Shown: positions 4,380 through 55,719, numbered from the stretch's first letter. The stretch is DNA of 64,000 bases from an uncultured Eubacteriales bacterium (GCA_964641455.1 CAZXLH010000002.1:50774-114773), one strand, 5' to 3'. Numbers and translations are program-made. Notes: generated by a model from the sequence alone, not told the origin.

Positions 4380-5060
4380 ATGAAAGTGATAGGGATTGCC
4401 GGAGGGATGGGTCCTCAAGCAACATGTGATTTGTACATGAAAATAATTCAACATACCCCGGCGGAAAAGGATCAGGACCACTTGCGGGTAATAATTGATT
4501 CTAATCCAAAAATACCTGATAGAACGGCTTATATCCTCGGCAAAGGTGAAGACCCCAGGCCGTATCTTATTGAAACCGCCTGTAATGTCGAAAAGGCCGG
4601 GGCATCATTTATAGTTATTCCTTGTAATACAGCGCATTACTTTCACAAAGATGTTCAAGCTAAGGTTGGTATTCCTGTACTTCATATGATGAATGAAGTG
4701 GCCTTGCACCTAAAGGGAAAAATAAAAAAGGCAGGGATTTTGGCTACAAGCGGTACTTTGAAAATCGGGCTTTATTCAGAAGCGCTTTCGGCTGAAGGTA
4801 TAGATACGATTGTACCCGGCGAAAAAAGCCAAGGCCAAGTGATGGAGTCTATATACTTGGTTAAATCCGGCAAGGTTGAACGTGCAAGAGAACTTATAAT
4901 TGAGCAAGGCAAAGCGCTTTCAGCTCGTGGCGCTGACGTAGTTATCGCAGGGTGCACTGAGATACCGCTCATATTGAAACAAGGCGACTTGGACATTGAC
5001 GTAATAGATGCAACTGATGTGTTGGCCAGAGCATGTGTGAAATTTGCCCTTGAGAAGTAA
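4380..5060 (+). CDS. Aspartate/glutamate-family amino-acid racemase, aspartate-racemase-like.
   Basis: The N-terminus (MKVIGIAGGMGPQAT) and the motifs PCNTAH and GCTE are characteristic of the Asp/Glu racemase family. Confidence 0.7.
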   Translation: MKVIGIAGGMGPQATCDLYMKIIQHTPAEKDQDHLRVIIDSNPKIPDRTAYILGKGEDPRPYLIETACNVEKAGASFIVIPCNTAHYFHKDVQAKVGIPVLHMMNEVALHLKGKIKKAGILATSGTLKIGLYSEALSAEGIDTIVPGEKSQGQVMESIYLVKSGKVERARELIIEQGKALSARGADVVIAGCTEIPLILKQGDLDIDVIDATDVLARACVKFALEK

Positions 5061-5080: not shown

Positions 5081-6685
5081 TTGAAAGCCAGAGTATTTAC
5101 CAACGGCAACTTCTGGGTTTCAGGCAGAGATTTAAGGCGAAGAGACAGTTTGGCTGCCCTAAACGGTAGAATTGTTTGTGTAGGAGATTACAATCAATGT
5201 CTTGATGCTCTTCCTATTGGTATCAAGCCTGAAGTAACAGATCTTAACGGAAAGACAGTTTTGCCTGGGTTTATCGACAGCCACCTCCACCTTTTGAGTT
5301 TTGGCCTAACATTGCGCGATGTATCTTTAGTTGATATTGGCTCTATTACTGAACTGAAATCAAAGGTTAAGGCAAGGGCAGATCAAGTTTCTGAAAATAG
5401 CTGGGTCATCGGCCGGGGCTGGGATCAGGATTTATTTTTCGAAAAACGATATCCTACACGAAAAGATCTTGATGAGGCTTCAGGTGGCAGGCCTGTGTAT
5501 TTGACAAGAGTGTGTGGACATATCGCAGTTGTTTCATCAAAAGCTCTTGAGATTGCAGGTGTTAACCGGGATACTCCGGACCCGCCGGGGGGCAAAATTG
5601 ATCGGGATTCCTATGGAGATCCCACCGGTATTCTTCGTGAAACTGCTCAGGGTTTAGTACGGCCTTACATTCCCGAAACAGATTATGAAACTATGGAAGA
5701 CGCCCTCAAAAATGCCATGGAATATGTGCTTTCCAGAGGTATTACTTCGGTTCATATAAATGACGGGCAGTTAGGATTTCCGGGAACCATGGAACTTTAT
5801 AAGAAGGTTCAGCAGCAAGGTTATTCCTTAAGGGTTTATTGGGACATTCCGGGTGATCTAATGACAGACCTGTTTGAGACCCCTCTGCGATCAGGAGACG
5901 GCGATGATTACTTCAGGATTGGAGCCGTGAAACTTTTTGCCGATGGCTCTCTTGGCGGAAGAACAGCTGCCTTGGAAGCACCATACTCAGACGATCCTAA
6001 CAATCGCGGTATGTTAGTTTTGTCTCAAGATGATCTCAAACAACAGGTTTATCTGGCCCACGCCAATGGTATGCAGGTAGCCATACACGCAATAGGCGAC
6101 AGAGCTGCCAAAGTAAGCCTCGAAGCAATAAACTCGGCTCAATCCAGGCTTCCCATTAGTGGGATAAGGCACAGGTTGGTTCATGTTCAAATATTGTCGC
6201 CCCTGCTTATCACTGAAATGAGACGGGTAAGAGTGGTTGCAGATGTTCAACCCAAGTTCATATCCAGTGACATGAGATGGGCGTTAGATAGAGTAGGAAC
6301 GGCCAGAATGCGATCTTCGTATTCCTGGCGTACAATGCTAAGGGCAGGCGTACCCCTTGCCGGAGGGTCTGATTGCCCGGTTGAACCCCCGGATCCATTG
6401 TATGGCATCTACTGTGCCGTAACACGCAAAGATATGGAAGGGAATCCACCTATGGGATTTTTCCCAAATGAGAAACTTACACTTGATGAAGCTGTGAATC
6501 TGTTTACAGCCGGCGGTGCTTATGGATCATACGAGGAGAATAAGAAAGGAAGCCTTACTCCTGGGAAACTGTGTGATTTGGTAGTTTTGTCAGAAGACAT
6601 TGCTTTCGTGAGCCCTGAAGACATTAAGGATTTAGAAGTGGTCCTTACCGTGGTCGGCGGAGAAATCGCTTACAGAAAGCCCTAA
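5081..6685 (+). CDS. Amidohydrolase-3 family metal-dependent hydrolase, YtcJ-like.
   Basis: The translation contains the motif VLPGFIDSHLHLLSFG, is 534 aa long, and ends GGEIAYRKP. The TTG start has a GGAGGTG RBS. Confidence 0.7.
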   Translation: MKARVFTNGNFWVSGRDLRRRDSLAALNGRIVCVGDYNQCLDALPIGIKPEVTDLNGKTVLPGFIDSHLHLLSFGLTLRDVSLVDIGSITELKSKVKARADQVSENSWVIGRGWDQDLFFEKRYPTRKDLDEASGGRPVYLTRVCGHIAVVSSKALEIAGVNRDTPDPPGGKIDRDSYGDPTGILRETAQGLVRPYIPETDYETMEDALKNAMEYVLSRGITSVHINDGQLGFPGTMELYKKVQQQGYSLRVYWDIPGDLMTDLFETPLRSGDGDDYFRIGAVKLFADGSLGGRTAALEAPYSDDPNNRGMLVLSQDDLKQQVYLAHANGMQVAIHAIGDRAAKVSLEAINSAQSRLPISGIRHRLVHVQILSPLLITEMRRVRVVADVQPKFISSDMRWALDRVGTARMRSSYSWRTMLRAGVPLAGGSDCPVEPPDPLYGIYCAVTRKDMEGNPPMGFFPNEKLTLDEAVNLFTAGGAYGSYEENKKGSLTPGKLCDLVVLSEDIAFVSPEDIKDLEVVLTVVGGEIAYRKP

Positions 6686-7448
6686 TGCCCAGGCCCATCC
6701 CGTAGTAGATTGCGCTAATTATCAAAGAACAAAATCCGGTTCTTTTGACTGCAGAATAGAAAAATTCTTCAGGAAATATCTTTATGAGCCAATCTAGATT
6801 AGGGTCAAGCAGCCATAACTCGTTTGGGAATATTACAATATGAAAGTTAGTCCACCAGTCCGTGAAGTTCAAAGCAGGAGGTATGGTTAGCAGTAATATT
6901 AGTGCTATAAGTACAATTGCAGAGATTTTAAGTGATTTGCCCACTAGTAATTTGGCCCTGGGTACAAGCGCGGCAAACACAACTCCCAATACAATGAGGC
7001 CCAGGCAAATGCGTTTTGCCAGGAAACCTAATTGAAACAAGGCACGGACATCCTTTAAGTGTTCAATTTCATTCTGCCTGTATAGCGGCCTGAGAGTGTC
7101 GTTAATAGTCACATCCAGTTGAGGTGTGGAGTTTTTGCCTGTCAAATAACCCTGAAGCCTCATGCCAACCATTTTCAGTTCTTCCATAGGTATTCGAGCT
7201 GACTCAGGAATATCAAGTTCCTCCCATTTTGCAGTGTAGAAATCAAGGTCTAAAGCTGTAATTTGGACAGACAGTAGTATGTTGAAGCCTACAAGCCCAA
7301 CTACGAGCATAGATACAACTGCAGCTCGGGCCCAAGGCCTGGACTTATGCCTGCTTGTATTTTTACCTTTGGGCATTTTCAAATCAGCCACCCCAATGTC
7401 TTCATGTCCGACGGACACCCGATAGGTTAGTTTTACATAGTATGCCAA
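6645..7448 (-). CDS. Uncharacterised polytopic membrane protein.
   Basis: The translation has a K/R-rich N-terminus and several hydrophobic helices. Its 3-prime end overlaps the convergent amidohydrolase gene by 41 bp. The start codon is uncertain. Confidence 0.5.
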   Translation of the reverse strand: MAYYVKLTYRVSVGHEDIGVADLKMPKGKNTSRHKSRPWARAAVVSMLVVGLVGFNILLSVQITALDLDFYTAKWEELDIPESARIPMEELKMVGMRLQGYLTGKNSTPQLDVTINDTLRPLYRQNEIEHLKDVRALFQLGFLAKRICLGLIVLGVVFAALVPRAKLLVGKSLKISAIVLIALILLLTIPPALNFTDWWTNFHIVIFPNELWLLDPNLDWLIKIFPEEFFYSAVKRTGFCSLIISAIYYGMGLGIRAFCKRFLRRPR

Positions 7449-9835: not shown

Positions 9836-10291
9836 TTGATGTTTTGGATTCCGTTTCTGGGAGTTGTGGTTCTGGACCAGTTGAGTAAGTGGTATATTAG
9901 ATCGAATTTTGCTCTCGGCCAGTCTCTGCCCATTATCGGTGAGTGGCTGCAGATTGTGTATAGAGAAAACGCAGGTGCCGCTTTTGGTATCCTGGCAGGC
10001 GCAAGATGGTTGTTTATTGTTACAAGCGCTATTAGTGTAGTGCTGGCCGTTTTGCTTCACCCGAAACTATATTCATTCGGGCGGCCTATGGTAATGGCGC
10101 TTGGGCTTGTTGCCGGAGGTGCTTTGGGAAACCTTATTGATAGGATACATCAAACCACAGTAACGGATTTTATATATCTAAAGTATTTTCCTGCAGTGTT
10201 TAACGTAGCCGATGCTGCAATAGTCATTGGAGCTTTCATGATTGGAATTATGTTGATTATTTTACTCCCAAAGGATGAGCCGGTGTTGTGA
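9836..10291 (+). CDS. lspA: Lipoprotein signal peptidase II.
   Basis: The translation contains the motifs NAGAAFG and FNVADAAI and has four TM helices. Confidence 0.85.
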   Translation: MMFWIPFLGVVVLDQLSKWYIRSNFALGQSLPIIGEWLQIVYRENAGAAFGILAGARWLFIVTSAISVVLAVLLHPKLYSFGRPMVMALGLVAGGALGNLIDRIHQTTVTDFIYLKYFPAVFNVADAAIVIGAFMIGIMLIILLPKDEPVL

Positions 10292-12839: not shown

Positions 12840-12899
12840 CCATGAAACCGTAAATATGGAGCAATTGTAACTTTACTTTAGATCAAATGGGCCGGAATC

Positions 12900-12947
12900 G
12901 CCGGGAACAAGCATCGTAATCCAGGGGTTCCGGCTCAATAATTTTAT
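12900..12947 (+). terminator. Candidate intrinsic terminator after the lipoprotein gene.
   Basis: A stem (GCCGGGAAC / GGTTCCGGC) containing one bulge is followed by TCAATAATTTTAT. Confidence 0.35.
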
Positions 12948-12952
12948 AGATC

Positions 12953-13958
<1,006 letters not shown>

Positions 13959-14150
13959 CCTTATTTGATATTCTATCATTCGGAGCTTGCTCATAAATAA
14001 CCAGTCTGCAATAACGAGCAAATATCCTGCAATTTACTTCGGCATTTTCAACTGATGCATGCCCCAAACACTTTTCCAGAGAGGGCGACCCTGTGTTGTA
14101 TTGATTTCCCGGTGTACTGATTTTCCAAATCATAGGAGGTGTTCTCCAAG

Positions 14151-15767
14151 TTGAGAAAAAGACTGGTAATGGTCCTTACGGCATTGTTTCTTACCATGAG
14201 TCTTTTGGCCGGCTGTGGTCCTAAAGCTCCCGAAGAACCGGAAGGGCCTACAGTAGTTAAGGGAGGATTTTTCGAGGATTACATGACAGGCGATCCAAAG
14301 GGCCTCGACGTACAGGAAAGCACTATGTTGGTCAACTATGAACTGGCACGGCTCATGTTTAGCACGTTGGTTAGGTACAAAGGCGCCACAACTGAACTTG
14401 AGCCTGAACTTTTGGCTGAAATGCCTGAAGTGTCTCCAGATGGTTTAACCTATACCTTTGAACTTAAGCAAGGCGTAATCTTTCATGATGGTGAAACTGA
14501 GCTTAAGTCAGATGATGTAAAATTCACTATTGAACGTATGCTTTCCCCAGAAGGAAAAGGGCTTTCTGCATGGCTATTCGATCCTATAAAAGGTGCCCAG
14601 GATATAATAGACGGCAAAAGTACTTCTCTTGAAGGATTTAAGAAAATAGATGATTACAAATTCGAAATCACACTAGAGGAGCCTTATGCCCCGTTCTTGC
14701 AGAATCTTGCGGTGCCGTCGGCTTCTGTTTACTCTGAAAGCATCGTGACCGCTGCAGGCGAAGATTTTGGGATTAACCCAATGGGCACAGGCCCCTTTAA
14801 ATTAAAGAAGTATACTCCTCAGGACGAAATTGTATTGGAGAAGCATACAGAATATTTTGAAGAAGGCCTCCCCTATCTTGATGGCGTAAGGTACAGGATT
14901 TTGGCTTCGACTACCGCGATTATGGAGTTTGAGAACGAGACCCTTGACATAGTTGCAGTCGGTGTTGAAGATCACAACCGGTTTGTAGAATCCGACCTTT
15001 ACACATTGCTTGAAGCTAACCCCCTCAACACATATTACTTTCTTATAAACCAGTCTAATGAAGATTGGGCTGACTTAAGGGTTCGTAAAGCTTTGGCGCT
15101 TAGCTTTAATAAGGAGGAGTTTGTTGAGTCGTTTTATCCCGGCGGCCGGGCTGAGGTGGCTACATCCTTTGTTACCCCTGGAATACCCGGGGCGTTTGAA
15201 AAAGGTGAAGGGCCTGCATATGATTACGATTTGGAAGCGGCCAAGGCTCTTATCGAAGAAGTGGTAACAGAAACCGGCAAACCTGTCGTTGTTGAGGCCT
15301 GGCAGCGGGGCGGCGGAGATACTATTAGCGATGCTAACCTTGCATTCCAGGCCATGGCTAAGGAAGCCGGTATTGATCTTAAGATAATTCCGGTTGAAGC
15401 AGGTGTTTTCAATTCGTCAAGACGGCAGGGTGATATTCCGGCAAACTATGGCAACTGGTGGGCAGACATACCTGACGCAGACAACTACATCGGCACTTTC
15501 TTTGCACGTGGCAACCAAATGTCATCAGGATATAACAATCCGGAAATTCAAGACAAAATCGAACAAGCCAAAATAGAAGTTGACCCTGATAAGCGTGCTG
15601 AGCTTTATCAGGAAATTGAGACTGTGCTGATTGGAGATGAAGTAGCTGTAATTCCCCTGTTCCATACCAAACAGTTTCGGTTTGTACATCCAAATGTTAA
15701 GGGTGTTATTATGCACCCCACGGGAATTGTGATGATTAGCACAGCTTACAAGGAAGTACCGGAATAA
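14151..15767 (+). CDS. oppA: Oligopeptide/dipeptide ABC transporter substrate-binding lipoprotein (SBP family 5).
   Basis: The signal peptide ends LLAGC and the protein is about 540 aa. An AGGAGG RBS at 14134 is followed by a TTG at 14151. The ORF track instead starts at a GTG at 14139, which overlaps the RBS. Confidence 0.8.
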   Translation: MRKRLVMVLTALFLTMSLLAGCGPKAPEEPEGPTVVKGGFFEDYMTGDPKGLDVQESTMLVNYELARLMFSTLVRYKGATTELEPELLAEMPEVSPDGLTYTFELKQGVIFHDGETELKSDDVKFTIERMLSPEGKGLSAWLFDPIKGAQDIIDGKSTSLEGFKKIDDYKFEITLEEPYAPFLQNLAVPSASVYSESIVTAAGEDFGINPMGTGPFKLKKYTPQDEIVLEKHTEYFEEGLPYLDGVRYRILASTTAIMEFENETLDIVAVGVEDHNRFVESDLYTLLEANPLNTYYFLINQSNEDWADLRVRKALALSFNKEEFVESFYPGGRAEVATSFVTPGIPGAFEKGEGPAYDYDLEAAKALIEEVVTETGKPVVVEAWQRGGGDTISDANLAFQAMAKEAGIDLKIIPVEAGVFNSSRRQGDIPANYGNWWADIPDADNYIGTFFARGNQMSSGYNNPEIQDKIEQAKIEVDPDKRAELYQEIETVLIGDEVAVIPLFHTKQFRFVHPNVKGVIMHPTGIVMISTAYKEVPE

Positions 15768-15836
15768 TTAAGTATAGACAGTCAAAGCGAAGGTGCGCCG
15801 CAAAGCGCACCTTCCCGCTACACGGGGTGATATTAT

Positions 15837-16754
15837 ATGGTCAACTACATTGTTCGCCGACTCCTTATTGCCATTCCAGTCTTAATCGGGATAACACTTA
15901 TTACATTTATTTTGCTCAACGTTGTTCCTGGCGATCCCGTGGAAATCATGCTGAAACGGTCAGATGACGCTACCATTGAAAAAGTCCGCGAGCAGCTCGG
16001 ATTAAACGATCCGTTAGCCGTTCAATACGGAAGGTTTGTGCGCAATGCTTGTAAGGGCGATCTTGGCAAATCGTTTATTACCGGATTACCGGTATCCGGT
16101 ATGATCAAAACTGCGTTTCCAAACACCATAAGGCTTGCGCTCACTGCGTTTGTGGTTGCAAGTATCATAGGGCTCATAGTTGGGATTGTATCGGCGGTCA
16201 AACAATATTCATTCCTGGATCACTTTCTTATGATTGGCGCGCTCTTAGGCATTAGCGCCCCTGCTTTTTGGGTAGCTACCATTGCCCAACTGATATTTGG
16301 GCTTAAACTAAAGCTCTTGCCTATTTCAGGGTATTCAAGCCCTAAAGATATGATTTTGCCTGCCTTGGTACTGGGAACCAGATATGCCGCTTCAATAGCA
16401 AGATATACCCGAACTACTTTGCTTGATGTCATAAGGCAAGATTACATTCGCACAGCCAGGGCAAAAGGCTTGGCAGAGAAAACAGTGGTATTTGGCCATG
16501 CCCTGAAGAATGCCTTGATACCGGTTGTAACTATTATGGGAATGCAGATAGGTGGGCTCTTAACCGGAGCACTCATGGTCGAAACTATCTTTGCCATCCC
16601 GGGAGTCGGAAGATTGTCGGTTTGGGCACTGAATAACCGGGACTTTCCTCTGGTTCAAGGTACGGTTCTTTTTAACGCATGTATATTTGTATTCGTAAAC
16701 ATTCTGGTAGATGTCATGTACGGCTATCTTGACCCGAGAATAAGACTGCGCTAG
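15837..16754 (+). CDS. oppB: ABC transporter permease, OppB/DppB type.
   Basis: The translation has the N-terminus MVNYIVRRLL and six TM helices, and a GGGGTGA RBS precedes the start. Confidence 0.85.
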   Translation: MVNYIVRRLLIAIPVLIGITLITFILLNVVPGDPVEIMLKRSDDATIEKVREQLGLNDPLAVQYGRFVRNACKGDLGKSFITGLPVSGMIKTAFPNTIRLALTAFVVASIIGLIVGIVSAVKQYSFLDHFLMIGALLGISAPAFWVATIAQLIFGLKLKLLPISGYSSPKDMILPALVLGTRYAASIARYTRTTLLDVIRQDYIRTARAKGLAEKTVVFGHALKNALIPVVTIMGMQIGGLLTGALMVETIFAIPGVGRLSVWALNNRDFPLVQGTVLFNACIFVFVNILVDVMYGYLDPRIRLR

Positions 16755-16765
16755 GAGGTGGGAAC

Positions 16766-17701
16766 GTGGCAAGAAGAACGGAAAACAAAAAGAAAGAAGA
16801 GGTTCTGCAGACATCAGAAGCAAAACAAGAAAGTTCCCATTCCTTGTGGAGCGATTCATGGAAGCGCCTAAAGAGGAATCGTCCGGCCATAGCAGGGCTT
16901 GTATTCATCATATTGCTGACTTTGTCAGCAATATTTGCCCCGTGGTTGGCACCTGCAGATCCTTTGAAGCAGGATCTGCCTAACCGCCTGAAACTTCCAG
17001 GAGCTCCTTCGAACATTACCCGGAATGGTACCTATATTTTAGGGTCTGATACCCTCGGCAGGGACATTCTTTCCAGGCTATTATACGGCGCAAGAATATC
17101 TTTGACTGTTGGGATAGTTACGCAGTTTCTAATAACGGTAATCGGAGTTGCACTTGGTGCTTTGGCAGGATATTACGGGGGTTGGATTGACATGCTTGTG
17201 ATGCGCACAGGAGACATTCTGTTTGCATTTCCCGACCTCCTTTTCTACATCGGGATAATGTTTGCCCTTGGCCCTGGTATCTACAATATGTTTCTTGCAT
17301 TGTCGATAATCGGATGGGCCGGGCGAGCCAGGCTTGTACGTGGCCAGTTTCTTTCGCTTCGTGAATCTGAGTATGTTGAGGCAGCTCGTGCACAAGGCTT
17401 ATCCGATGCCAGGATCATTTTCCACCATATCCTACCTAATTCCTTGGGGCCAATAATTGTATCCATCACCATGGGGATTCCCGGTTCCATGCTCTCAGAG
17501 GCTTCTCTCTCCTACTTGGGATTGGGTATTCTGCCTCCTACTCCCAGCTGGGGCAACATGATTGGTGATGCCAGGCCTTATTTGCGTGCCAATCCGTGGT
17601 TCTCTGTATGGCCAGGCATTGCAATAGTTCTAACTGTCCTGTCATTTAACCTATTGGGCGATGGGCTGCGGGATGCCCTTGATCCCAGGCTGAAAAGATG
17701 A
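16766..17701 (+). CDS. oppC: ABC transporter permease, OppC/DppC type.
   Basis: An AGGAGGTG RBS precedes a GTG start, and the permease is polytopic. Confidence 0.8.
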   Translation: MARRTENKKKEEVLQTSEAKQESSHSLWSDSWKRLKRNRPAIAGLVFIILLTLSAIFAPWLAPADPLKQDLPNRLKLPGAPSNITRNGTYILGSDTLGRDILSRLLYGARISLTVGIVTQFLITVIGVALGALAGYYGGWIDMLVMRTGDILFAFPDLLFYIGIMFALGPGIYNMFLALSIIGWAGRARLVRGQFLSLRESEYVEAARAQGLSDARIIFHHILPNSLGPIIVSITMGIPGSMLSEASLSYLGLGILPPTPSWGNMIGDARPYLRANPWFSVWPGIAIVLTVLSFNLLGDGLRDALDPRLKR

Positions 17702-17831
17702 TTAAGACAAATAACCGTGGATACCTTTTAAATCATAGGATACTTGTAGAATCAAGGGTTAAGTTAAAGAATCTCAAGCAAACTGCAAACGAGCAGTTCT
17801 TATTGACCGAGATTTGAAGGGAGAGCTTGAT

Positions 17832-19034
17832 TTGAACAATTGCCTCAGATATGGAAGCAAATATGTCAAATTGGCTACGGTTTGCAAAGGGTTACTTACT
17901 TTTGCGATCGCTTTGGGTGTTATCTGTATTCTGGGATGTCAACCTGAACCGACTCCTCCTGATGCAGAGATACTAACAAGAGCAAACAAAATCATAGAAA
18001 CAACAATACAAGAGGCAAAGATTTGCGATGAGGAAGCCATTTTTACTATTACGGCTTCGGTAGAAGACGGCAGAGTTATCTTAGCCGGAGAGACAACTGA
18101 GCTGGAAATCAAGGAAACTATTGTACTGGAGATTTTGGATATTCCCGGAGTAAAGGTAATTGACGAAGTAACAATGTTTCCTGCTGCAGAACTGGGCGAT
18201 AAGATATGGGCAGTTGTCAAAGAGCCTGTAATCAATCTAGGCGATGCTCCGGGCCAATCTGAAGGCAAGAACACAGTAACTCAGGCCAGAATGGGCGATA
18301 TCGTACTTGTTCTGCTTAAGAAGGATGATTGGTACCTGGTTCAGATGGAAGATAAGTATCTTGGCTGGGCTGATCCTAATCACATTACGCTTTATGATTT
18401 AACATCCCTTAATGATTATTGGTCTGGGCAAGTTGCTCTGATTGAAACCAAAATGGCAGAGGCATTGGACGAACCTGAGGGCCAGCAATTATTTAGCCGG
18501 TGGCTGGTGCAGGGAACGGTGCTCCCTCTTGCTTCCGTTGATCCTGAGTGGTCTCAACTTAAACTTCCCGATGGCAACATCTGCTTTGTCAGAACTTCCG
18601 GTATCAAGAGTTTTTCTAACAGGGATAGTGTGTTTGCCGAAAAAAAGAGTGCCGAGGACGTAATTGCAACGGCGAAGCAGTATATAGGCCTTCCCTATCT
18701 GTGGGGCGGTTGCACTTCATACGGGTTTGACTGCTCAGGTTTTACTCAGTTTTGCATGAAAATAAATGGTTATCACATTAGGCGAGACGCTGATATCCAA
18801 TATGAACAAGGTGAACCGGTGAGAGCAATAGTCGACTTGAAACCAGGCGACCTGGTGTTTTTTGAAACATATAGGCCCGGCCCTTCACATGTAGGGATTT
18901 ACATAGGCGATTATCGTTACATTCATGCAGGGAGCAGTGCCGGAGTTGCCATTAATAGTTTCTACCCTTCCCACTCTGACTACTCAGCGTCTTTAGCCGG
19001 CAAATTCTTAGAAGGACGTCGAATCATCAAATAA
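17832..19034 (+). CDS. SH3b-domain NlpC/P60 (C40) peptidase lipoprotein, YkfC-like gamma-D-Glu-L-diamino-acid endopeptidase.
   Basis: The C-terminal C40 domain carries the motifs [14 protein letters not shown] and H-x-G. The lipobox-like sequence is ICILGC. The start was taken at the TTG after a GAAGGGAGAG RBS; the ORF track starts at 17814. Confidence 0.7.
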
Positions 19035-19059
19035 GGCAACCGGCAGAGGTGAGGTCATT

Positions 19060-20076
19060 ATGAATAATTTGTCAGCAGGTGAACCATTGTTGCAAGTATG
19101 CGATCTTACTACCAAGTTTTTCACCGACGACGGTGTTGTAACAGCCGTGGACAGAGTATCCTTCAATATTGGGGAAGGCGAGACTTTGGGGATGGTTGGT
19201 GAATCAGGATGTGGTAAGTCAGTTACATCATTGTCTATCATGCGGCTTATTCCTTCGCCTCCTGGAAAAATAACATCTGGGGAAGTTACTTTCGAAGGTG
19301 AGGACTTGCTTGCAAAATCGGAAGCAGAGATGCGTTCAGTGCGAGGAAACAAGATCTCGATGATATTTCAAGAGCCAATGACATCACTGAATCCTGTTTA
19401 CACTATAGGAACTCAAATATCTGAAACTATACTTTTACATCAAGACGTATCCAAGGAGGATGCCAAGCACAAAACCATTCAAATGCTCAAATTGGTTGGC
19501 ATTCCAGAGCCTGAGAGGCGGTATGTAGAATATCCACACCAATTGTCAGGTGGTATGAGGCAGCGTGTGATGATAGCCATGGCTCTGTCCTGTAACCCAA
19601 AACTACTAGTGGCAGACGAACCTACAACTGCCCTTGACGTTACGATTCAGGCTCAGATACTTGATTTGATTAGGCGTCTTAGGGCTGAAACAGGAATGAG
19701 TGTGCTTCTTATAACCCATGATCTTGGAGTAATCGCTGAGATGGCACACCGGGTTGTAGTCATGTATGCCGGCCAGATATTTGAAGAAGCTTCTTGTGAA
19801 GCTCTTTTTGAAACGCCGTGTCATCCGTATACTACTGCGCTTTTGAGGTCAATTCCCCGCATGGATGCAGACAGGGGCCGCCTGCATGTTATCGAAGGTA
19901 TGGTTCCGAATCTGCTTGAATTACCTGACGGTTGTAGATTTCATCCCAGGTGTAGTGAGGCTGAAGAGATTTGCAGAGAAGCCGTTCCTGAACTACTCAC
20001 TTTAGAGGGCAACCATAGGGTTCGGTGCTTTAAGAGAGGCTCCGGACCTGAGGAGGTGAGCCAATGGGCACAATAG
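19060..20076 (+). CDS. oppD: Oligopeptide ABC transporter ATP-binding protein.
   Basis: The translation has the Walker A motif GESGCGKS, the signature LSGGMRQR, and an OppD-type C-terminal domain. A GAGGTGAGG RBS precedes the start. Confidence 0.85.
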
Positions 20077-21092
20077 CAGAGATTACGGATGTAAATGTTG
20101 AACAACCTATGCTTGATCCCAACCACCTTATGGAAGTAAACGGGTTGGTCAAATGGTTTCCGATTAGAGGTGGAGTGTTTCAGAAAACCATTGGCCACGT
20201 TAAAGCAGTAGATGACGTGAGTTTTTTTATCAGACATGGAGAGACTCTTGGGCTTGTGGGTGAAAGCGGGTGTGGAAAAACCACTACCGCCAGGACCATG
20301 CTCAGGTTAATTGAACCGACTGAAGGGGAAGTGGTTTTTGATGGTGTAAACTTACTGAACTTAGGAAAAGACGAGTTAAGTAAGATTCGCCCAAAAATGC
20401 AAGTGATCTTCCAAGACCCTTACGGTTCGCTCAACCCTCGGTTTACAGTCGGTGAAATAATAGGAGAAGCGCTGGAGTTTCATGGGATGGCCAGAGGGAA
20501 AGAACTAAATGACAGAGTGTCCCACCTTTTGGAAATGGTAGGGCTTTCTCCGTATCATGTTCAACGGTATCCCCACGAATTTTCCGGCGGGCAACGCCAG
20601 AGGATAGGCATAGCCAGAGCTATTGCTACTGACCCCAAACTGATAGTGTGTGACGAACCTGTTTCCGCTCTTGATGTATCGATACAAAGCCAGATACTGA
20701 ATCTGTTGGAAGACCTCCAGGAGCAATTTGGGGTGTCTTATCTTTTTATAGCTCATGGATTGCATGTAGTTAAGCACATATCTGATCGTGTAGGCGTGAT
20801 GTATCTTGGGAAGATAATTGAAGTCGCTGAAAGCAATAATATCTATGAAAATCCTTTACACCCTTATACCAGGGCACTGATTTCGGCTATACCCATCCCA
20901 AACCCAAAAGCCAAGCGGCATCGTATCATTCTTGAAGGTGATGTTCCTAGCCCTGTAAATCCGCCTTCAGGATGCGGGTTTCGGACTCGGTGCCGGTTTG
21001 CGGCCAAGATTTGCGAGAATGAAGAGCCTGTTTTAGGCGAAGTGGCTACAGGCCATTTCGTAGCATGCCATAATTTTGATCGGTTATTATGA
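20064..21092 (+). CDS. oppF: Oligopeptide ABC transporter ATP-binding protein.
   Basis: The translation has the Walker A motif GESGCGKT and the signature FSGGQRQR. Its start overlaps the end of oppD. Confidence 0.85.
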
Positions 21093-21158: not shown

Positions 21159-21197
21159 GAGGCGGTATTCCCCAAAAGGCCAAGGCAATACCGCCTC
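21159..21197. other. Intergenic hairpin with an 11-bp stem (GAGGCGGTATT / AATACCGCCTC), flanked on both sides by the direct repeat TCTTGTG.
   Basis: The hairpin sits between the convergent oppF and LysM genes. Neither side has a strong U-tract. Confidence 0.4.
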
Positions 21198-21209: not shown

Positions 21210-22106
21210 TTAGCCCAGCGCTCCGCCAGACGTAGGAATCAGCACTACTTGCCCTGGTACGAGCACATTAGGATCTGCAATTTGTGGGTTAAATGCGATA
21301 AGTTCATTTAAACTAACTGCAAATCTTTGCGCGATAGAGAACATGGTATCACCGGATTGCACAACATATTTTCTGCCTGGAGAAGGAGCAGGCCCTGGGC
21401 CCGGCGTAGGAGGCATTGGTCTTTTGGGCACAACAATGATCTCTCCTACTATAATCATATCCGGATTCCTTACCTGAGGATTAGCTCTTATCAAAGCTTC
21501 GAGTGAAACCCCGAACCGTCTCGCTATGCTGAACATAGTGTCACCAGATTGAACCACGTATTGAGTAGTTTCTGCCGGAGGCATTGCAGGAGGTTCAGCC
21601 GGTGGCTTAGAAGGTGGCGGAACTGAAACATCAGGTAAGGTTATCTTACATTTCTCGGCGATTTTACGTACCAGATGCATTTGGTCTGCCTTTCGCCGGG
21701 TTACCCTTTCCAATATGGCTCGTTGGATCGGCTCTGATGCATGTGGATCGATTTTGATGTATCCATTGTCAATTACGTGCATGAAATGGCGATGGATAAC
21801 TATGATGCATGTTGTGAAGTCATCAGGAACGGTTATGGCGATGACAGTACCTTTATCCTCCACTCCCATGACAGCCATTAACTCAGTGCAATCAGCAAGT
21901 ACGTGATTGTGAATTGAGGCCAGTTGCTCTGCTTCATCAAGACAATTATGTTGCCCGGATAATGTCAGGCACTTTTCCAGTGTTGGAACTATCTGTTTTT
22001 CAGTTGTCCAAGTAAGAATGCAAGCATCACGAAGGGTGCTTTCAGTCATTTCTTCTCTCCCCCCGGATCGATAAAAATGGGACATGACGGTAGCCTTCTC
22101 TTCCAA
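21210..22106 (-). CDS. Protein with two C-terminal LysM domains separated by proline-rich linkers and an unknown ~150-aa N-terminal domain.
   Basis: The motif YVVQSGDTMFSIA occurs twice. There is no signal peptide or TM segment. The gene is transcribed divergently from lexA. Confidence 0.65.
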   Translation of the reverse strand: MEEKATVMSHFYRSGGREEMTESTLRDACILTWTTEKQIVPTLEKCLTLSGQHNCLDEAEQLASIHNHVLADCTELMAVMGVEDKGTVIAITVPDDFTTCIIVIHRHFMHVIDNGYIKIDPHASEPIQRAILERVTRRKADQMHLVRKIAEKCKITLPDVSVPPPSKPPAEPPAMPPAETTQYVVQSGDTMFSIARRFGVSLEALIRANPQVRNPDMIIVGEIIVVPKRPMPPTPGPGPAPSPGRKYVVQSGDTMFSIAQRFAVSLNELIAFNPQIADPNVLVPGQVVLIPTSGGALG

Positions 22107-22286: not shown

Positions 22287-22315
22287 TTTAGAAGTATACA
22301 CAAGGAGAGGTGAAA

Positions 22316-22927
22316 ATGGAGAAACTAACCTTCCAGCAAGCCAGGGTACTTGAAGCCATCCGTCAATATATACGTGAGGTTGGTTATCCCCCATCAGTAA
22401 GAGAATTAGGCAAAAGGTTGGGCCTAAAATCGACTGCCACTGTTCATAGCCACCTCAGAACCCTTGAACGCAAGGGCTATTTACGTAGAACCGCTCAGAA
22501 GTCACGTGCTTTTACTATTGTAGAAGATACAGAAAATGATCAGCCGGCACCTGCTGTGATGGTACCTATAGTAGGCATGGTCCGTGCCGGCGTTCCGGTA
22601 CTGGCTGTTGAAAATATAGAAGAGTTTGTGCCTTTGCCCCGCTCGTTTGTTAGGAGTGAAAATGTATTCATGCTTCAAGTAGAGGGCGACAGCATGATAG
22701 GTGCAGGTATTTTCAGCGGTGATTTCGTACTTGTAAGGCAGCAGGAAACGGCAGATAACGGAGATATCGTTGTAGCGCTTATCGATGATGAAGCAACAGT
22801 AAAAACCTTTTACAGAGAAAAACATACAATCAGGCTTCAACCGGAAAATCCCAAACTCAAACCAATATACTCAAAAAATGTTCGTATACTTGGTAAAGTA
22901 ATCGGGTTATACCGGTCATTCCACTAA
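22316..22927 (+). CDS. lexA: LexA SOS repressor.
   Basis: The N-terminal winged HTH reads GYPPSVRELGKRLGLKSTATVHSHLRTLERKGYL, and the C-terminal S24 peptidase carries the cleavage-site sequence VAG and an S...K dyad. An AAGGAGAGG RBS lies 6 nt before the ATG. Confidence 0.85.
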   Translation: MEKLTFQQARVLEAIRQYIREVGYPPSVRELGKRLGLKSTATVHSHLRTLERKGYLRRTAQKSRAFTIVEDTENDQPAPAVMVPIVGMVRAGVPVLAVENIEEFVPLPRSFVRSENVFMLQVEGDSMIGAGIFSGDFVLVRQQETADNGDIVVALIDDEATVKTFYREKHTIRLQPENPKLKPIYSKNVRILGKVIGLYRSFH

Positions 22928-51561: not shown

Positions 51562-52449
51562 CTAGCGCCTAAGGAATTCACAGACTCCTTTGGCTAAACC
51601 TCTGGCTACTGACTCCTGAAACCAATTCTGCCTCAAGAGGTTTACATCATTCCAGTTTGTCACAAATCCTATTTCCATCAAGGCTGCCGGCATATATGTT
51701 TGATTGAGTACGTAGTATGGGCCTTTTTGAACATCGATCATTCTAAGCCCTGTGTAGTCAGATACAGCCTGGGCAAGTGTTTTCGCCAATCGTTGCGATT
51801 CCCAAGAGCCATTCCTGTAAAAGCCCATGACTCCCGATACTTGCGAGTCATTGGGATATGCATTTATATGTATGCTGAGAAAAAGATCAGCACCCCTTGA
51901 ATTAGCTATAGAAACCCTGGCAAGCAGGTCATCTGCAGGTGGCCACCAGTCACTGCCTGGTGAATAGTCACCGTACCTGGTCATAATAACAACTGCCCCT
52001 TGAGATTCAAGGTATTTTCTGACTTTGGCCGCTATGTCAAGAGTAAAGTTCTTTTCTTTATCGCCCCAATAAGATATAGCTCCGGGTTCAGGCCCGCCAT
52101 GGCCAGGGTCTATCACGATTACTCTGTTTCTCAGTGGCCCCGATCCTCTTGAAACACTGTTTGCCCTTTCAAGAGCGTTCCAAGTAAGAGGGCCGGCAAT
52201 TCCGTCGACGGCCAAACCTGCACTTCTTTGAAACTCTATTGTTGCAAATTGGGTCCTTGAGCCGAAAATCCCATCAATAGGCCCTGGATTAAAACCGGCA
52301 TTCATAAGAGATTCCTGCAAATTGGCCACACTGTCTCCATAACTTCCCAATCGAAGGAGAGAAGCTGCGTGGCCTTGAATAGGAATAAGCACAGTGATTA
52401 GTATTAGTGTAATTACTGCTATAATTGTTGATAGCCTAGGTTTTGGCAT
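51562..52449 (-). CDS. N-acetylmuramoyl-L-alanine amidase (Amidase_3) with an N-terminal PG_binding_1 domain.
   Basis: An AGGAGG RBS is followed by an ATG (MPKPRLS), then a signal peptide. The translation contains LVDGIFGSRT and VIVIDPGHGG. Confidence 0.7.
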   Translation of the reverse strand: MPKPRLSTIIAVITLILITVLIPIQGHAASLLRLGSYGDSVANLQESLMNAGFNPGPIDGIFGSRTQFATIEFQRSAGLAVDGIAGPLTWNALERANSVSRGSGPLRNRVIVIDPGHGGPEPGAISYWGDKEKNFTLDIAAKVRKYLESQGAVVIMTRYGDYSPGSDWWPPADDLLARVSIANSRGADLFLSIHINAYPNDSQVSGVMGFYRNGSWESQRLAKTLAQAVSDYTGLRMIDVQKGPYYVLNQTYMPAALMEIGFVTNWNDVNLLRQNWFQESVARGLAKGVCEFLRR

Positions 52450-52559
52450 TAATGGTGTCCTCCTTCTTGCTTGACATAACGTGGTTATATTACATACTAC
52501 CTGATAAAAACAGGTATTCACCAGGAAAAATAAGGTTATCCATGGTTTGAGGGGGTAAT

Positions 52560-54842
52560 TTGGGTATGTCTAGTTCGGATATAGGCTATGTACTACGGGA
52601 TCTACGCCAGGATCCCAGATTCATGGCTTGCATAACTGGCTGGCATCATTTATCGGCTACTCCGGCTGATTATCTCGCTATCCCACATGACTTGCATCCT
52701 TCATTGAAACAAGCACTGAGCCAAAAGGGAATAAACGCGCTTTACGCTCACCAGCGAGATTCTTATGATCGAATTTCAAATGGCGAAGATATTTGTGTGG
52801 TAACTCCGACGGCATCAGGCAAGACTATGTGTTACAATTTGCCTGTGTTGGATTCGATCCTCAAGAATGATGCAACTTGTGCTTTATACATATTTCCGAC
52901 TAAAGCGCTTGCCCAAGATCAACTGGTTGAACTTCGTAATATGTGTAAGCCGGGTGGGTTTTCGATAAGATGTTTTAGTTATGATGGCGATACACCTTCA
53001 TACAAAAGAGGCATTGCGAGGCAAGCAGGGCAGATTATAATTACTAATCCAGACATGCTGCATCTGGCTATTCTTCCTCACCATTGTGCATGGGCCGGTT
53101 TTTTTGCCAGGTTGAAATATGTAATTATTGATGAAATGCATCACTACAGAGGGGTTTTCGGAAGCCATGTAGCCAATGTTTTAAGGAGGCTTATGCGAAT
53201 TTGCCTCTTCTATGGAACAACACCTCAATTCATTTTGGCTTCTGCAACAATTGCAAACCCAGGCGAGTTGGCTTCGGCTCTAACAGGCAGATCAGTGTCG
53301 TTGGTTGACAAGAGCGGTGCCCCGGTGTCAGAGAAGGATTTTATTTTTTACAACCCCCCCGCTCTTAGCAGTGAAGGTTCAATCAGGCAATCGGCAATAA
53401 ATGCTGCATCAAGGATTGCTTTACGGTTTGTTAGAAACAACATTCAAACTTTGATTTTTGCAAAATCCAGAAAGTCATGTGAATTGCTGGTACAATACCT
53501 TAGAAATTCGTTCACTGATGAGCCTAAGAAAGGCAAAGTTCAGGGTTATCGGGGTGGGTACTTACCTAAGCAACGAAGGGCAATAGAGGAAGGCCTTCGG
53601 AACGGAGATATTATAGGCGTAGCTGCCACCAACGCGTTAGAACTGGGAATAGATATAGGCAATCTTGATGTGGTGGTTATGGCGGGTTACCCGGGAACCA
53701 TATCCAGCACTTGGCAGCAAGCAGGCAGAGCCGGAAGAAGGCAAGCAAAGTCTGTTGTTATCTTAATAGCAGCAAGTTCTCCCCTTGACCAGTTTATAAT
53801 AAGCAACCCTGATTACTTCTTTGCCCAAAGCCCTGAACACGCAATGGTAAATCCCAATAACCCCTATATCCTTGAGCAACATGCAATGTGTGCAGTTTAC
53901 GAGCTTCCGTTTAGCACCGATGACATAGCATTCAGAGGCATAAGGATTCAACCTATCTTGGAAGATTTGGCCAAAAGAAAAATCCTGGACAAAGATTCAT
54001 GCAGGTGGAATTGGCCTTCGAATGGTTTTCCTGCAGCCGGGGTGAGTCTGAGATCTGCTGCCTGTGACAATTTTACTGTAATAGATATAACTCATAACTA
54101 TAAAACCATAGGCCGGGTTGACCGGGCTTCGGCTCCAATATTAATCCACGAGCAGGCTATCTATATGCATAAGGGGCAGCAATATCAAGTTATCAAATTA
54201 GATTATCAAAGCGGAAAAGCTTATGTAAAACAAGTTAACGTAGATTATTATACTGACGCTAACCTGGCTGTAGGCATCAAGGTCATGTCAGTTGAGAAAT
54301 CTTCCCGGGCCTTCCCTGTCAAATTCGGTAAGCTCTGTGTTACTGCGCTTGCCACCGTTTACAGAAAGATTAGGCTTTATACCAACGAGAATATCGGATC
54401 AGGCGAAATAAGCATTCCTGAAGCCAATTTGCATACCCAAGGCACATGGTTCCATATCCCCGATGATCTATGCAGTAACATCGAGCCATACTTGATAGGG
54501 CGTATACTTTTCGGAATCGCTAATGTGTTATCGAATATTGCTCCTTTGTTTCTTATGAGCGACAAGCAAGATTTGGGAGTCTCAGTAGAAGTTCGTTCTG
54601 CCTATGACGGTAAGCCTACGATATACTTATATGATTCTCATCCAGGCGGGCTGGGTTTGGCGGAAAAGACGTTCCATATTCTTCCCTATATCATAAAAGC
54701 CGGCCTTGATTTAATTTCATCTTGCCAGTGCCCAAAAGGTTGTCCCGGATGTGTGGGCCCTGAGCAAAAAGCCGGCCATTATGTTAAGATTTCGTGCCTT
54801 GAGGTGCTTGGTGCCATAAGTTCAAGGGTTAGGCCCAATTAA
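52560..54842 (+). CDS. DEAD/DEAH-box helicase with a C-terminal DUF1998 4-Cys domain (MrfA/YprA family).
   Basis: The helicase motifs I (TASGKT), II (DEMH) and VI (QAGRAGR) are present. The C-terminus reads CQCPKGCPGCV. Confidence 0.75.
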   Translation: MGMSSSDIGYVLRDLRQDPRFMACITGWHHLSATPADYLAIPHDLHPSLKQALSQKGINALYAHQRDSYDRISNGEDICVVTPTASGKTMCYNLPVLDSILKNDATCALYIFPTKALAQDQLVELRNMCKPGGFSIRCFSYDGDTPSYKRGIARQAGQIIITNPDMLHLAILPHHCAWAGFFARLKYVIIDEMHHYRGVFGSHVANVLRRLMRICLFYGTTPQFILASATIANPGELASALTGRSVSLVDKSGAPVSEKDFIFYNPPALSSEGSIRQSAINAASRIALRFVRNNIQTLIFAKSRKSCELLVQYLRNSFTDEPKKGKVQGYRGGYLPKQRRAIEEGLRNGDIIGVAATNALELGIDIGNLDVVVMAGYPGTISSTWQQAGRAGRRQAKSVVILIAASSPLDQFIISNPDYFFAQSPEHAMVNPNNPYILEQHAMCAVYELPFSTDDIAFRGIRIQPILEDLAKRKILDKDSCRWNWPSNGFPAAGVSLRSAACDNFTVIDITHNYKTIGRVDRASAPILIHEQAIYMHKGQQYQVIKLDYQSGKAYVKQVNVDYYTDANLAVGIKVMSVEKSSRAFPVKFGKLCVTALATVYRKIRLYTNENIGSGEISIPEANLHTQGTWFHIPDDLCSNIEPYLIGRILFGIANVLSNIAPLFLMSDKQDLGVSVEVRSAYDGKPTIYLYDSHPGGLGLAEKTFHILPYIIKAGLDLISSCQCPKGCPGCVGPEQKAGHYVKISCLEVLGAISSRVRPN

Positions 54843-54949
54843 CAGCGATTTCTACCTTGTAACTGTTATACCCTATGTTTTTCACTCATAACTATAAGCA
54901 ACCAAGGCTCTCTTTTTAACTCTTATTCTTGTCGAAAGGAGGAATATGA

Positions 54950-55675
54950 TTGCTCATTTCTTTAAAGCCACGTCATCGTGAGCGGGTGTTAATCTTCATT
55001 GCTTTTGCCTTGTTGGTTGCCGGTGCAAAAATAGGCGTCACGTTTCATGACAAAAGCGTTGCGGCCAATATAACCCCTTTAACTCGTGTAAAAACATCAG
55101 AACCGGTTATAGGCGTCATGGTTGACGTATCACAGGCTACTGCTGAATCTGTGGCTCAATGCTTAGGTGTTTTTGAATCTGCCGGCATTAAAGCCACCTG
55201 GTTTTGCTCGGCCACTTTTGCAGAAGCTCATGATGATTTGATACAGCAAATTATTGATAATGGCCATGAATTAGGGCTTTCGGGCACCGATGATAAGGCC
55301 ATGGACCGGCTTGACGATGCGGAAATTGAACTGCGGTTGGTTAGGGCAAGGGAAGCTCTTATTAAGACTGCCGAACCTATGCCCTTCTTTTATGCACCTG
55401 CAGGCCGTTTCAATAAGAAACTTGTAAATGCAGCTTTTGAGCAAGGGTTCTACTCAGTCAAAGGCTCCATTGACGGGAAAGCCCTTAGAGGAAAAGTAGA
55501 CAGCGTAGTAAGGAAGGTTGGCGGTTCTGCCAAGCCTGGCGACATACTTATAATACGCATAGGCAAGAAAGGCATGGTTCCCAAACCTGAGTATATTGAA
55601 AATCTGGCAACATACCTTAAAATTCAAGGAATGTCTATGGTAAGCCTGTCTACCCTGGTAAGAGGGATACGATAA
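54950..55675 (+). CDS. Polysaccharide-deacetylase-like (NodB-fold) protein with an N-terminal TM segment.
   Basis: An AAGGAGG RBS lies 6 nt before the TTG. Fold similarity is only moderate and the catalytic motifs were not verified. Confidence 0.45.
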   Translation: MLISLKPRHRERVLIFIAFALLVAGAKIGVTFHDKSVAANITPLTRVKTSEPVIGVMVDVSQATAESVAQCLGVFESAGIKATWFCSATFAEAHDDLIQQIIDNGHELGLSGTDDKAMDRLDDAEIELRLVRAREALIKTAEPMPFFYAPAGRFNKKLVNAAFEQGFYSVKGSIDGKALRGKVDSVVRKVGGSAKPGDILIIRIGKKGMVPKPEYIENLATYLKIQGMSMVSLSTLVRGIR

Positions 55676-55719
55676 CAGTTTGCTTATGAAGGCACCCGGT
55701 TTTCGCCAGGTTACCGGTT

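Follow-up and report, generated by a model that had tools for sequence, protein, structure and literature searches.

To understand why a gene for a cell-wall peptidase should lie between the permease and ATPase genes of a peptide importer, we examined a 64,000-nucleotide stretch of DNA, hereafter the window, from an uncultured Eubacteriales bacterium (GCA_964641455.1, CAZXLH010000002.1:50774-114773). A sequence-only reading of this DNA had described an operon at 14151-21092 with the order oppA-oppB-oppC-[C40 peptidase lipoprotein]-oppD-oppF. Open reading frame (ORF) analysis and Pfam searches bear out this order, revealing six co-directional ORFs from 14139/14151 to 21092 on the plus strand, which encode a substrate-binding protein (SBP), two permeases, an NlpC/P60 peptidase (P60) and two ATPases:

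14151-15767, plus strand: substrate-binding lipoprotein, Opp/Dpp SBP family 5 (Pfam SBP_bac_5, E 1e-81)
15837-16754, plus strand: permease, OppB/DppB type (BPD_transp_1_N and BPD_transp_1)
16766-17701, plus strand: permease, OppC/DppC type (OppC_N and BPD_transp_1)
17832-19034, plus strand: P60, an apparently exported BON-SH3b-SH3b-NlpC/P60 lipoprotein of YkfC/DPP-VI type (Pfam NLPC_P60, 5e-24; SH3_16, 8e-7)
19060-20076, plus strand: ATPase, OppD/DppD type (ABC_tran and oligo_HPY)
20064-21092, plus strand: ATPase, OppF/DppF type (ABC_tran and oligo_HPY)

The answer that we consider likely is that P60 is an exported stem-peptide endopeptidase feeding the importer encoded with it, in other words that peptides are cleaved outside the cell and then imported.

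The identity of the peptidase carries much of this argument. Its ORF is open from TTG 17814, but the likely start is TTG 17832, with a GGGAGAG motif and the purine-rich stretch GAAGGGAGAG just 5' of it, and residues are numbered from there. The domains and residues that define the enzyme are located as follows:

18207-18617, plus strand: two SH3b domains, with Thr150 and Tyr176 (18357-18359) in the first, SH3b1 (from alignments to 3H41 and 3NPF)
18651-19031, plus strand: NlpC/P60 catalytic domain (from alignments to solved structures and relatives)
18732-18734, plus strand: Cys301 of the Asp300-Cys301-Ser302 motif, NlpC/P60 domain
18786-18788, plus strand: Asp319 of the Arg318-Asp319 motif, NlpC/P60 domain
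18888-18890, plus strand: catalytic His353
18924-18926, plus strand: catalytic His365

The best sequence matches in the PDB were 3PVQ (9e-27), 3NPF (2e-25) and 3H41 (BcYkfC; 5e-24), with alignments of ~285-320 columns that span the first SH3b domain through the end of the catalytic domain, whereas LytE and other autolysins matched the last ~100 residues alone. Identity to the characterised YkfC orthologues is 25-30%. An AlphaFold2 model built on 31 relatives (pLDDT 93, pTM 0.85) retrieved 4R0K, 3PVQ and 3NPF as top Foldseek matches (TM-score 0.81-0.84, root-mean-square deviation 2.3-2.7 Å over 283-286 columns) and 3H41 with a TM-score of 0.76; superposition on 4R0K, 3NPF and 3H41 covered 283-318 columns at 2.3-3.4 Å. 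In the model the two SH3b domains and the catalytic domain are arranged as in the YkfC triangle, where SH3b1 contributes to the active site, a statement about overall fit and not about residue-level pocket geometry.

The residues by which Xu et al. recognised the YkfC subfamily are the Cys238-His291-His303 triad, Asp237, Arg255-Asp256 and Tyr118 of SH3b1 (PMC2954226). Cys301, His353 and His365 of the window peptidase align with this triad, and Thr150 is equivalent to Thr84 of BcYkfC. Tyr176, within DKYLGW, aligns with EGYPGW of 3H41 and DDYTGW of 3NPF and hence with BcYkfC Tyr118 and BoYkfC Tyr80, while Asp319 aligns with BcYkfC Asp256 (PRDS in 3H41) and BoYkfC Asp221 (PRDA in 3NPF). The position of BcYkfC Ser257 is occupied by Ala, as in the Bacteroides enzymes. 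Thr150, Gln151, Tyr176, Gly178, Trp179, Asp300-Cys301-Ser302, Arg318-Asp319 and His353 are invariant in the alignment of 31 relatives; the third triad position is His in most of these and Gln or Asn in four. The sequence-only reading had likened the protein to YkfC on the strength of its Cys/His C40 signature and SH3b domains, had proposed comparison with 3H41, and had named loss of the triad or affinity with LytF-type autolysins as evidence to the contrary. The likeness holds: the complete triad and both SH3b domains align with 3H41, and the protein groups with YkfC/DPP-VI by sequence and by fold. Judged by alignment and model, the peptidase carries every sequence and fold mark of this subfamily.

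These residues also bear on specificity. In characterised enzymes the SH3b1 Tyr and the Asp of the RD motif bind L-Ala's free amine (PMC2954226, PMC4600125), close the S2 pocket and exclude substrates linked to N-acetylmuramic acid (MurNAc) (PMC4600125). BcYkfC, BtYkfC and BoYkfC cut free tri-, tetra- and pentapeptides only (PMC4600125, Table 1); the Tyr/Asp pair is strictly conserved among such stem-peptide-only enzymes and replaced in lysins, and changing the corresponding Ala of DvLysin to Tyr abolishes activity on large substrates and turns it into a stem-peptide enzyme (PMC4600125). The window peptidase is thus predicted to be a gamma-D-Glu-L-diamino acid endopeptidase acting on free stem peptides with an N-terminal L-Ala. 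It could instead be a LytE/LytF/CwlO-like autolysin that attacks intact sacculi and owes its place in the operon to co-regulation or history, as it is predicted to be exported and membrane-tethered like many autolysins, its catalytic domain is ~35-40% identical to those of LytE and Acd24020, and a gene for a LysM protein lies next to the operon. We regard this as very unlikely, since the Tyr/Asp pair that excludes MurNAc-linked substrates is invariant, LytE carries Thr after the Arg where the window peptidase has Asp319, P60 has no LysM or other wall-binding repeats, and the three-domain fold fits the recycling enzymes (TM-score 0.76-0.82) while autolysin matches are limited to the catalytic domain.

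Where the predicted stem-peptide endopeptidase acts is indicated by its N-terminal region, which comprises two further elements:

17832-17939, plus strand: signal peptide with lipobox I-L-G-C, Cys36 encoded at 17937-17939 (read from the sequence without a dedicated predictor)
17961-18176, plus strand: BON domain, residues ~44-115, alpha-beta-beta-alpha-beta, with invariant Gly86 (Pfam BON, family profile and DSSP on the model)

An uncharged hydrophobic N-terminal segment is present in 98 of 111 full-length relatives, with a lipobox-like Cys in at least 54; several of the 13 relatives that lack such a segment are apparently truncated gene calls still ending in GC, and the Thermotogota relatives have a signal peptide without the Cys. 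The SBP likewise begins with a signal peptide, MRKRLVMVLTALFLTMSLLAG, followed by Cys in an LLAG-C lipobox. Genes for Lit (intramolecular transacylase; 6645-7448, minus strand) and LspA (signal peptidase II; 9836-10291, plus strand) are located a few kb 5' of this operon with its two lipoproteins. The isolated BON domain scores under the 27-bit Pfam gathering score (23.5 bits, E 7e-5). PF04972 is matched by 20 of 27 orthologous domains (best E 9e-13), and a profile of the family finds Rv0899 (3e-7), OsmY (1.5e-4), 6V4V, DolP/YraP (5e-3) and Kbp in the PDB. The modelled elements (helix 44-62, strands 71-78 and 81-88, helix 91-102, strand 108-115) agree with the BON assignment that we give to residues ~44-115 on profile and model evidence. 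BON domains are associated with the cell envelope, anionic phospholipid being bound by DolP. The peptidase is therefore predicted to be exported and lipid-anchored, acting at the outer face of the membrane. The sequence-only reading overlooked the BON domain and the export signal; given that signal, cleavage should precede, not follow, uptake.

The embedding of P60 recurs in other genomes. A scan of one genome per species gave 80 loci, and the window proteins were mapped onto these together with loci from exact look-up. A full-length P60 relative is encoded at 54 species loci, which fall into the following arrangements (A to F denote the opp-type genes of the window transporter, primes those of a different system):

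22 of 54 loci: A-B-C-P60-D-F, embedded as in the window, with transporter identities of 56-91%
13 of 54 loci: P60 3' of a different Opp-type system, A'B'C'D'F', 24-59% identical to the window transporter
13 of 54 loci: P60 alone, with no adjacent Opp-type system
6 of 54 loci: the remainder (L068, L026, L012, L028, L062, L063), described in the next four lines
L068, 6449-11232: P60-D-F in a high-GC Bacillota metagenome-assembled genome (MAG), an opposite-strand gene for a major facilitator superfamily transporter upstream and no detectable A-B-C
L026: D'-F' upstream on a cut contig
L012 and L028: contigs end upstream
L062 and L063: Bacteroidota outgroups

The embedded order occurs in three phyla, Bacillota, Thermotogota and Chloroflexota; it is seen in Thermosediminibacter oceani, Fervidicola ferrireducens, Tepidanaerobacteraceae and Thermovenabulum, in some ten Pseudothermotoga species and in one Chloroflexota MAG, among others. 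As A-B-C-P60-D-F recurs at 22 of 54 loci in three phyla, the embedding is not due to chance; it is a widespread conserved cassette, which the sequence-only reading had overlooked. L068 is either a remnant of this cassette or a rearrangement.

This distribution bears on a further explanation, in which the transporter carries a non-peptide cargo such as nickel, opines or oligosaccharides and its adjacency to P60 is an accident of a plastic terminus locus. A dif-like site does lie beside the locus (see below), the presence of the transporter varies among relatives, and all NCBIfam matches of the transporter are below cut-off, with nickel permease models scoring about like peptide ones. We give this explanation hardly any credence, since three phyla retain the embedded order, in chromosomal contexts that are unrelated and with SBPs 56-62% identical between Bacillota and Thermotogota, the SBP residue that anchors an amine is conserved, and enzymes acting on murein dipeptides are encoded in sister cassettes.

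A neighbour-joining tree of the peptidase, rooted with Bacteroidota DPP-VI-like sequences, places the embedded loci on deeper branches and the window peptidase inside a Candidatus Fermentithermobacillaceae clade that holds all three arrangements. This topology fits an ancestral cassette from which the transporter genes were later lost or replaced. Within the cassette the lowest conservation is consistently that of the peptidase gene: compared with L009, the closest embedded locus, the transporter proteins are 81-91% and P60 66% identical to those of the window. Nucleotide identity to L009 is flat at ~75% over oppABC, the P60 catalytic domain and oppDF and dips in the BON and SH3b2 regions alone; with no identity breakpoint, a mosaic origin or a recent transfer of the transporter around a resident P60 was rejected as unsupported. 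The A'B'C'D'F' genes are located directly 5' of P60 at the same chromosomal site in L008, L018, L019, L021, L022, L025, L027, L030, L031, L035, L036, L043 and L046, and in at least one locus (L088) an unannotated opposite-strand ORF lies between them and P60. At ~8565-9369 of L006 (Pseudothermotoga thermarum, CP002351) oppD is split by ~0.8 kb with two short opposite-strand ORFs, and this transporter may be inactivated.

Clustering of the flanking ORFs of the embedded loci and annotation of representatives revealed four recurrent partners. An MR_MLE gene, whose best PDB match is the B. subtilis L-Ala-D/L-Glu epimerase YkfB (1JPM/1TKK, 3e-106), is on the same strand as the SBP gene and 17-194 nt 5' of it in L015, L032 and L047. 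In an Ardenticatenaceae (Chloroflexota) genome (L074, 2251-10746) the order is SBP-B-C-[YkfB-like MR_MLE]-[SH3b-SH3b-P60]-D-F, with both murein-peptide enzymes embedded between the permease and ATPase genes. A D-aminoacylase-like hydrolase, matching D-aminoacylase 1M7J (2e-99) and Bordetella N-acyl-D-glutamate deacylase 3GIP (3e-90), is encoded directly 3' of oppF in L006, L015 and L048 and also adjoins a DPP-VI-like P60 in the Bacteroidota genome L063. Since L-Ala-D-Glu is formally an N-acyl-D-glutamate, this hydrolase may plausibly replace the epimerase step on the dipeptide. A diaminopimelate (DAP) dehydrogenase gene, above the TIGR01921 cut-off, is present upstream in L006, L038 and L039, and an M28 peptidase gene upstream in five Pseudothermotoga loci. 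For each partner enzyme, a product of P60 cleavage or a derivative of it is a plausible substrate, and the epimerase, hydrolase and dehydrogenase genes of sister cassettes support a role of the cassette in murein peptide use. The suggestion of the sequence-only reading that operon placement couples uptake and cleavage likewise gains support from the conservation of the embedding across phyla and from the YkfB-type genes on orthologous cassettes, both of which argue for a functional linkage of enzyme and transporter.

None of the four partners adjoins the operon of the window. The window does have an aspartate-racemase-family gene (4380-5060, plus strand) in tandem with an Amidohydro_3 gene (5081-6685, plus strand), 7.5 kb upstream of the operon and syntenic in relatives. 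The racemase also clears the cut-off set for CuyB cysteate racemase, the amidohydrolase is similar to 3ICJ, an uncharacterised protein, and a 36-37% identical amidohydrolase divergently adjoins P60 in two Clostridia MAGs (L051, 6167-7732; L059, 6051-7613). The pair is possibly linked to the use of D-amino-acid peptides. The amidohydrolase was rejected as a counterpart of the Pseudothermotoga cassette hydrolase, there being no detectable relation beyond 47 residues.

The transporter is a complete Opp/Dpp importer, made up of an SBP of family 5, a pair of permeases of which one has OppC_N, and two oligo_HPY ATPases, all far above Pfam cut-offs. We infer its cargo from the SBP and from the partner genes. 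The nearest solved relatives of the SBP are 8UPI (3e-55) and E. coli DppA (1DPP, 2e-46), with B. subtilis DppE and E. coli MppA further off. It keeps the Asp that anchors the free alpha-amine of the ligand (Asp413 in 8UPI; Asp408 in DppA by our own numbering), and the amine-anchor motif WWADIPD is found in nearly all SBPs of embedded cassettes, two having WWADYPD or WWADFPD. This conservation suggests that the ligand probably has a free alpha-amino group. Among the candidates, which are L-Ala-D-Glu, the diamino-acid half and an uncut stem peptide, the first is favoured by the epimerase and deacylase partners. The same module could have another cargo or order of events, importing intact tri- and tetrapeptides in competition with the enzyme or taking up the diamino-acid half (meso-diaminopimelate (mDAP), Lys or mDAP-D-Ala); the peptidase would then mainly detoxify or trim peptides or destroy signalling muropeptides. 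That the SBP retains the amine-anchoring Asp only, that DAP dehydrogenase genes adjoin three cassettes, and that the tripeptide is bound uncut by MppA of E. coli and DppE of B. subtilis are in keeping with such a scheme. It nonetheless appears rather improbable, as the YkfB-type epimerase and N-acyl-D-Glu-deacylase-like genes of sister cassettes point to L-Ala-D-Glu in the cytoplasm, and an exported enzyme encoded in the importer's own operon would deplete a cargo of intact peptides.

Several observations weigh against cleavage outside the cell followed by import of the dipeptide. 8UPI, the nearest solved relative of the SBP, binds amino-acid amides and not peptides. The position of DppA Arg355, presumably the carboxylate clamp, is Arg here and Trp, Ser or Ile in orthologues, and on account of this variation a DppA-like dipeptide clamp was rejected as evidence for the SBP ligand. 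No NCBIfam equivalog cut-off for a cargo class (DppA, OppA, MppA, NikA, GsiB and others) was reached by the SBP or the transporter. Peptidase_S66 (ykfA) and MR_MLE (ykfB) genes are absent from the scanned window ORFs of at least 150 amino acids (five mostly overlapping or opposite-strand ORFs being unscanned), as the sequence-only reading had it, so that LD-carboxypeptidase and epimerase, like the D-aminoacylase of the sister type, were not found in the 64 kb. The ~130-nt gap between oppC and P60 may leave room for an internal promoter. At the same chromosomal site P60 occurs without this transporter in 13 relatives and after a different Opp-type system in 13, which means that the enzyme does not strictly require this transporter.

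With these points taken into account, we still consider an exported endopeptidase feeding its co-encoded importer the likely arrangement, and it would operate as follows. P60 would be exported and lipid-anchored at Cys36, with the BON domain keeping it on the outer side of the cytoplasmic membrane. Its YkfC/DPP-VI-type site would take no substrates but free tri-, tetra- and pentapeptides whose N-terminal L-Ala is unsubstituted, as released by muramoyl-L-alanine amidases. One or both of the products, L-Ala-D-Glu and the diamino-acid part, would be caught by the lipoprotein SBP and imported by the OppBCDF-type transporter, and breakdown would be finished by cytoplasmic enzymes encoded elsewhere; genes for enzymes of this kind (YkfB-type epimerase, D-aminoacylase-like hydrolase, DAP dehydrogenase) accompany sister cassettes. 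In this way the bacterium probably recovers or scavenges wall fragments. A bolder proposal, which we put forward tentatively and with more doubt than belief, is that the BON-YkfC lipoprotein is a dedicated extracytoplasmic pre-processing subunit of the importer, which would use BON to attach to the membrane or to the SBP/permease complex and pass L-Ala-D-Glu straight to the transporter, and that the genes form a widespread necromass-scavenging cassette of thermophilic anaerobes, drawing on murein peptides of dead neighbours rather than serving simple self-recycling, which has been kept and exchanged as a unit across Bacillota, Thermotogota and Chloroflexota.

We infer that the six genes are co-transcribed. 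The intergenic gaps are, in order, 69, 11, ~130 and 25 nt, and oppD and oppF overlap by 13 nt. The SBP ORF is open from 14139; its TTG start at 14151, preceded by AGGAGG at 14134-14139, is the choice of gene callers on identical metagenome contigs. In consensus scans, promoter- and terminator-like sites inside the cluster did not exceed shuffled expectation and none was found in the oppC-P60 gap, and an internal promoter or terminator was provisionally rejected on this basis. A known RNA regulator upstream of the operon was similarly rejected, since no riboswitch, T-box or other known RNA was matched by Rfam anywhere in the window. The operon promoter presumably lies within 12840-14138, a 1.3-kb region of 40% GC (~45% elsewhere) whose ORFs (13192-13446 and 13586-13870) are all short and have no family matches, and which also holds the dif-like site. 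At the 3' end a possible transcript end was noted:

21159-21197, unstranded: perfect inverted repeat of 11 bp in the interval between oppF and the LysM gene, which converge (sequence and predicted fold)

Its fold z-score is only -1.5 and it has no T-run, which makes it weak evidence for a transcript end.

The gene neighbourhood (dksA-like, lspA, rluD, phosphoribosyltransferase, a 187-amino-acid ORF, the operon, then the LysM gene on the minus strand, lexA, a methionine-gamma-lyase-family gene on the minus strand and hflX on the minus strand) has an order common to Fermentithermobacillaceae MAGs; this synteny and the identity to named MAGs are the grounds for placing the organism near Candidatus Fermentithermobacillaceae. 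The neighbourhood includes a candidate recombination site:

12955-12980, minus strand: dif-like 26-mer, GTCCTATAATATACATTATGTAAACT, 1.2 kb 5' of the SBP gene

This 26-mer is identical at 23 of 26 positions to the B. subtilis dif core, with no chance matches in 100 shuffles. Differing by 0-5 substitutions, it is kept at the corresponding place and orientation in 26 related loci, and the loci with the site (among L008-L055, L089 and L090) always have it next to the P60 gene or its transporter; in the A'B'C'D'F' loci it lies upstream of the transporter in most and between F' and P60 in L008. On this evidence it is probably the chromosome dimer resolution site. GC skew changes from positive to negative at ~21-22.5 kb, where gene orientation also turns from plus to minus, at the 3' end of the operon and 8-9 kb to the right of the dif-like site, with the whole operon between the two. 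The operon is therefore likely to sit at the replication terminus, and plasticity of the terminus region may contribute to gain and loss of transporter genes here. No second dif-like site was detected in the window, the next best match having 10 mismatches, and Xer-mediated (IMEX-like) integration was rejected in the absence of a second site flanking the cassette.

The adjacent LysM gene (21210-22106, minus strand) encodes a 298-amino-acid protein with two LysM domains, SafA-type LysM matches and a weak YneA match, and is divergent from lexA (22310-22927, plus strand). This layout resembles the yneA-lexA SOS cell-division-inhibitor pair of B. subtilis, with a much longer LysM protein, and the pairing is kept in most relatives. 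A sigma-70-family factor and SpoIIR are encoded at 23-1429; together with the SafA-type domains of the LysM protein they indicate that the organism has sporulation genes. Further cell-wall genes cluster at 51562-57874, and these and one other peptidase gene are listed here:

51562-52521, minus strand: muramoyl-L-alanine amidase (Amidase_3 and PG_binding_1)
54950-55675: polysaccharide deacetylase
55720-56955, minus strand: DD-carboxypeptidase (Peptidase_S11)
56990-57874, minus strand: RodZ-like gene
61994-63394, minus strand: M20 peptidase

The amidase is the kind of enzyme that would yield free stem peptides for P60.

Murein peptide recycling is well worked out only in E. coli, where uptake comes first, and is largely conjecture for monoderms and deep-branching thermophiles. 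An operon that joins a predicted exported enzyme to a complete importer, and in sister genomes adds the epimerase or a D-aminoacylase-like hydrolase, offers a compact, genetically defined system for testing which route is taken, what the SBP carries and what a BON domain does on a peptidase, and better annotation would follow for several hundred genes now called 'C40 family peptidase' or 'peptide ABC transporter' in digester and hot-spring metagenomes.

Among known enzymes, BcYkfC (3H41), BtYkfC (3PVQ/4R0K), BoYkfC (3NPF) and B. sphaericus DPP VI share with the window peptidase the SH3b1-SH3b2-NlpC/P60 architecture, the triad and the Tyr and Asp residues. The Bc, Bt and Bo enzymes also have a predicted signal peptide, and their folds match with TM-scores of 0.76-0.82. 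The window peptidase differs from these YkfC orthologues in its extra ~75-residue N-terminal BON region and lipoprotein anchor and in the location of its gene inside the importer operon and not beside ykfB. DvLysin of Desulfovibrio vulgaris (3M1U) is likewise a lipoprotein with an extra N-terminal domain, two SH3b domains and NlpC/P60, but its Tyr and Asp positions hold Ala and Asn, and it cuts peptidoglycan that is intact (PMC4600125). The overall fold match of DvLysin to the peptidase model is much weaker (TM-score ~0.5), and no BON match was seen for DvLysin.

Genetic linkage of a Dpp-type importer to YkfC for murein peptide use has its precedent in the dppABCDE-ykfABCD genes of B. subtilis. 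There, however, YkfC, which has no signal peptide, works once the peptides have been taken up (PMC2954226), and ykfA-D come after the transporter genes, whereas in the window the enzyme is predicted to be exported, its gene has permease genes on one side and ATPase genes on the other, and neither ykfA nor ykfB was found. The order of events that we favour is closer to that proposed for B. cereus by Xu et al. (2010), external cleavage followed by import of L-Ala-D-Glu, with a signal-bearing ykfC that adjoins oppA (PMC2954226). In the B. cereus ykfB-ykfC-oppA cluster, as in the window, an exported YkfC is encoded next to a peptide SBP; the SBP gene alone is adjacent, there is neither a complete transporter nor a BON domain, and the route is a proposal. 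In the systems of E. coli (MppA/OppBCDF with MpaA and YcjG) and Chlamydia (OppABCDF with YkfC) the peptidase is cytoplasmic and encoded elsewhere, MpaA being an unrelated zinc amidase. The cytoplasmic location of the peptidase in B. subtilis, E. coli and Chlamydia implies an order of events opposite to that in the window (PMC2954226, PMC9928106). Neither a BON domain joined to NlpC/P60 nor a ykfC gene within a transporter operon was found described in the searchable literature; as coverage is incomplete, this is weak evidence of novelty. For B. subtilis, B. cereus, Bacteroides, E. coli (with the unrelated MpaA) and Chlamydia, functional coupling of such an enzyme to Opp/Dpp transport has been established or put forward before. 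What differs here is the BON domain and lipid anchor of the peptidase, the constant placement of its gene between those for the permeases and the ATPases within a complete importer operon, and the breadth of this arrangement across thermophilic anaerobes.

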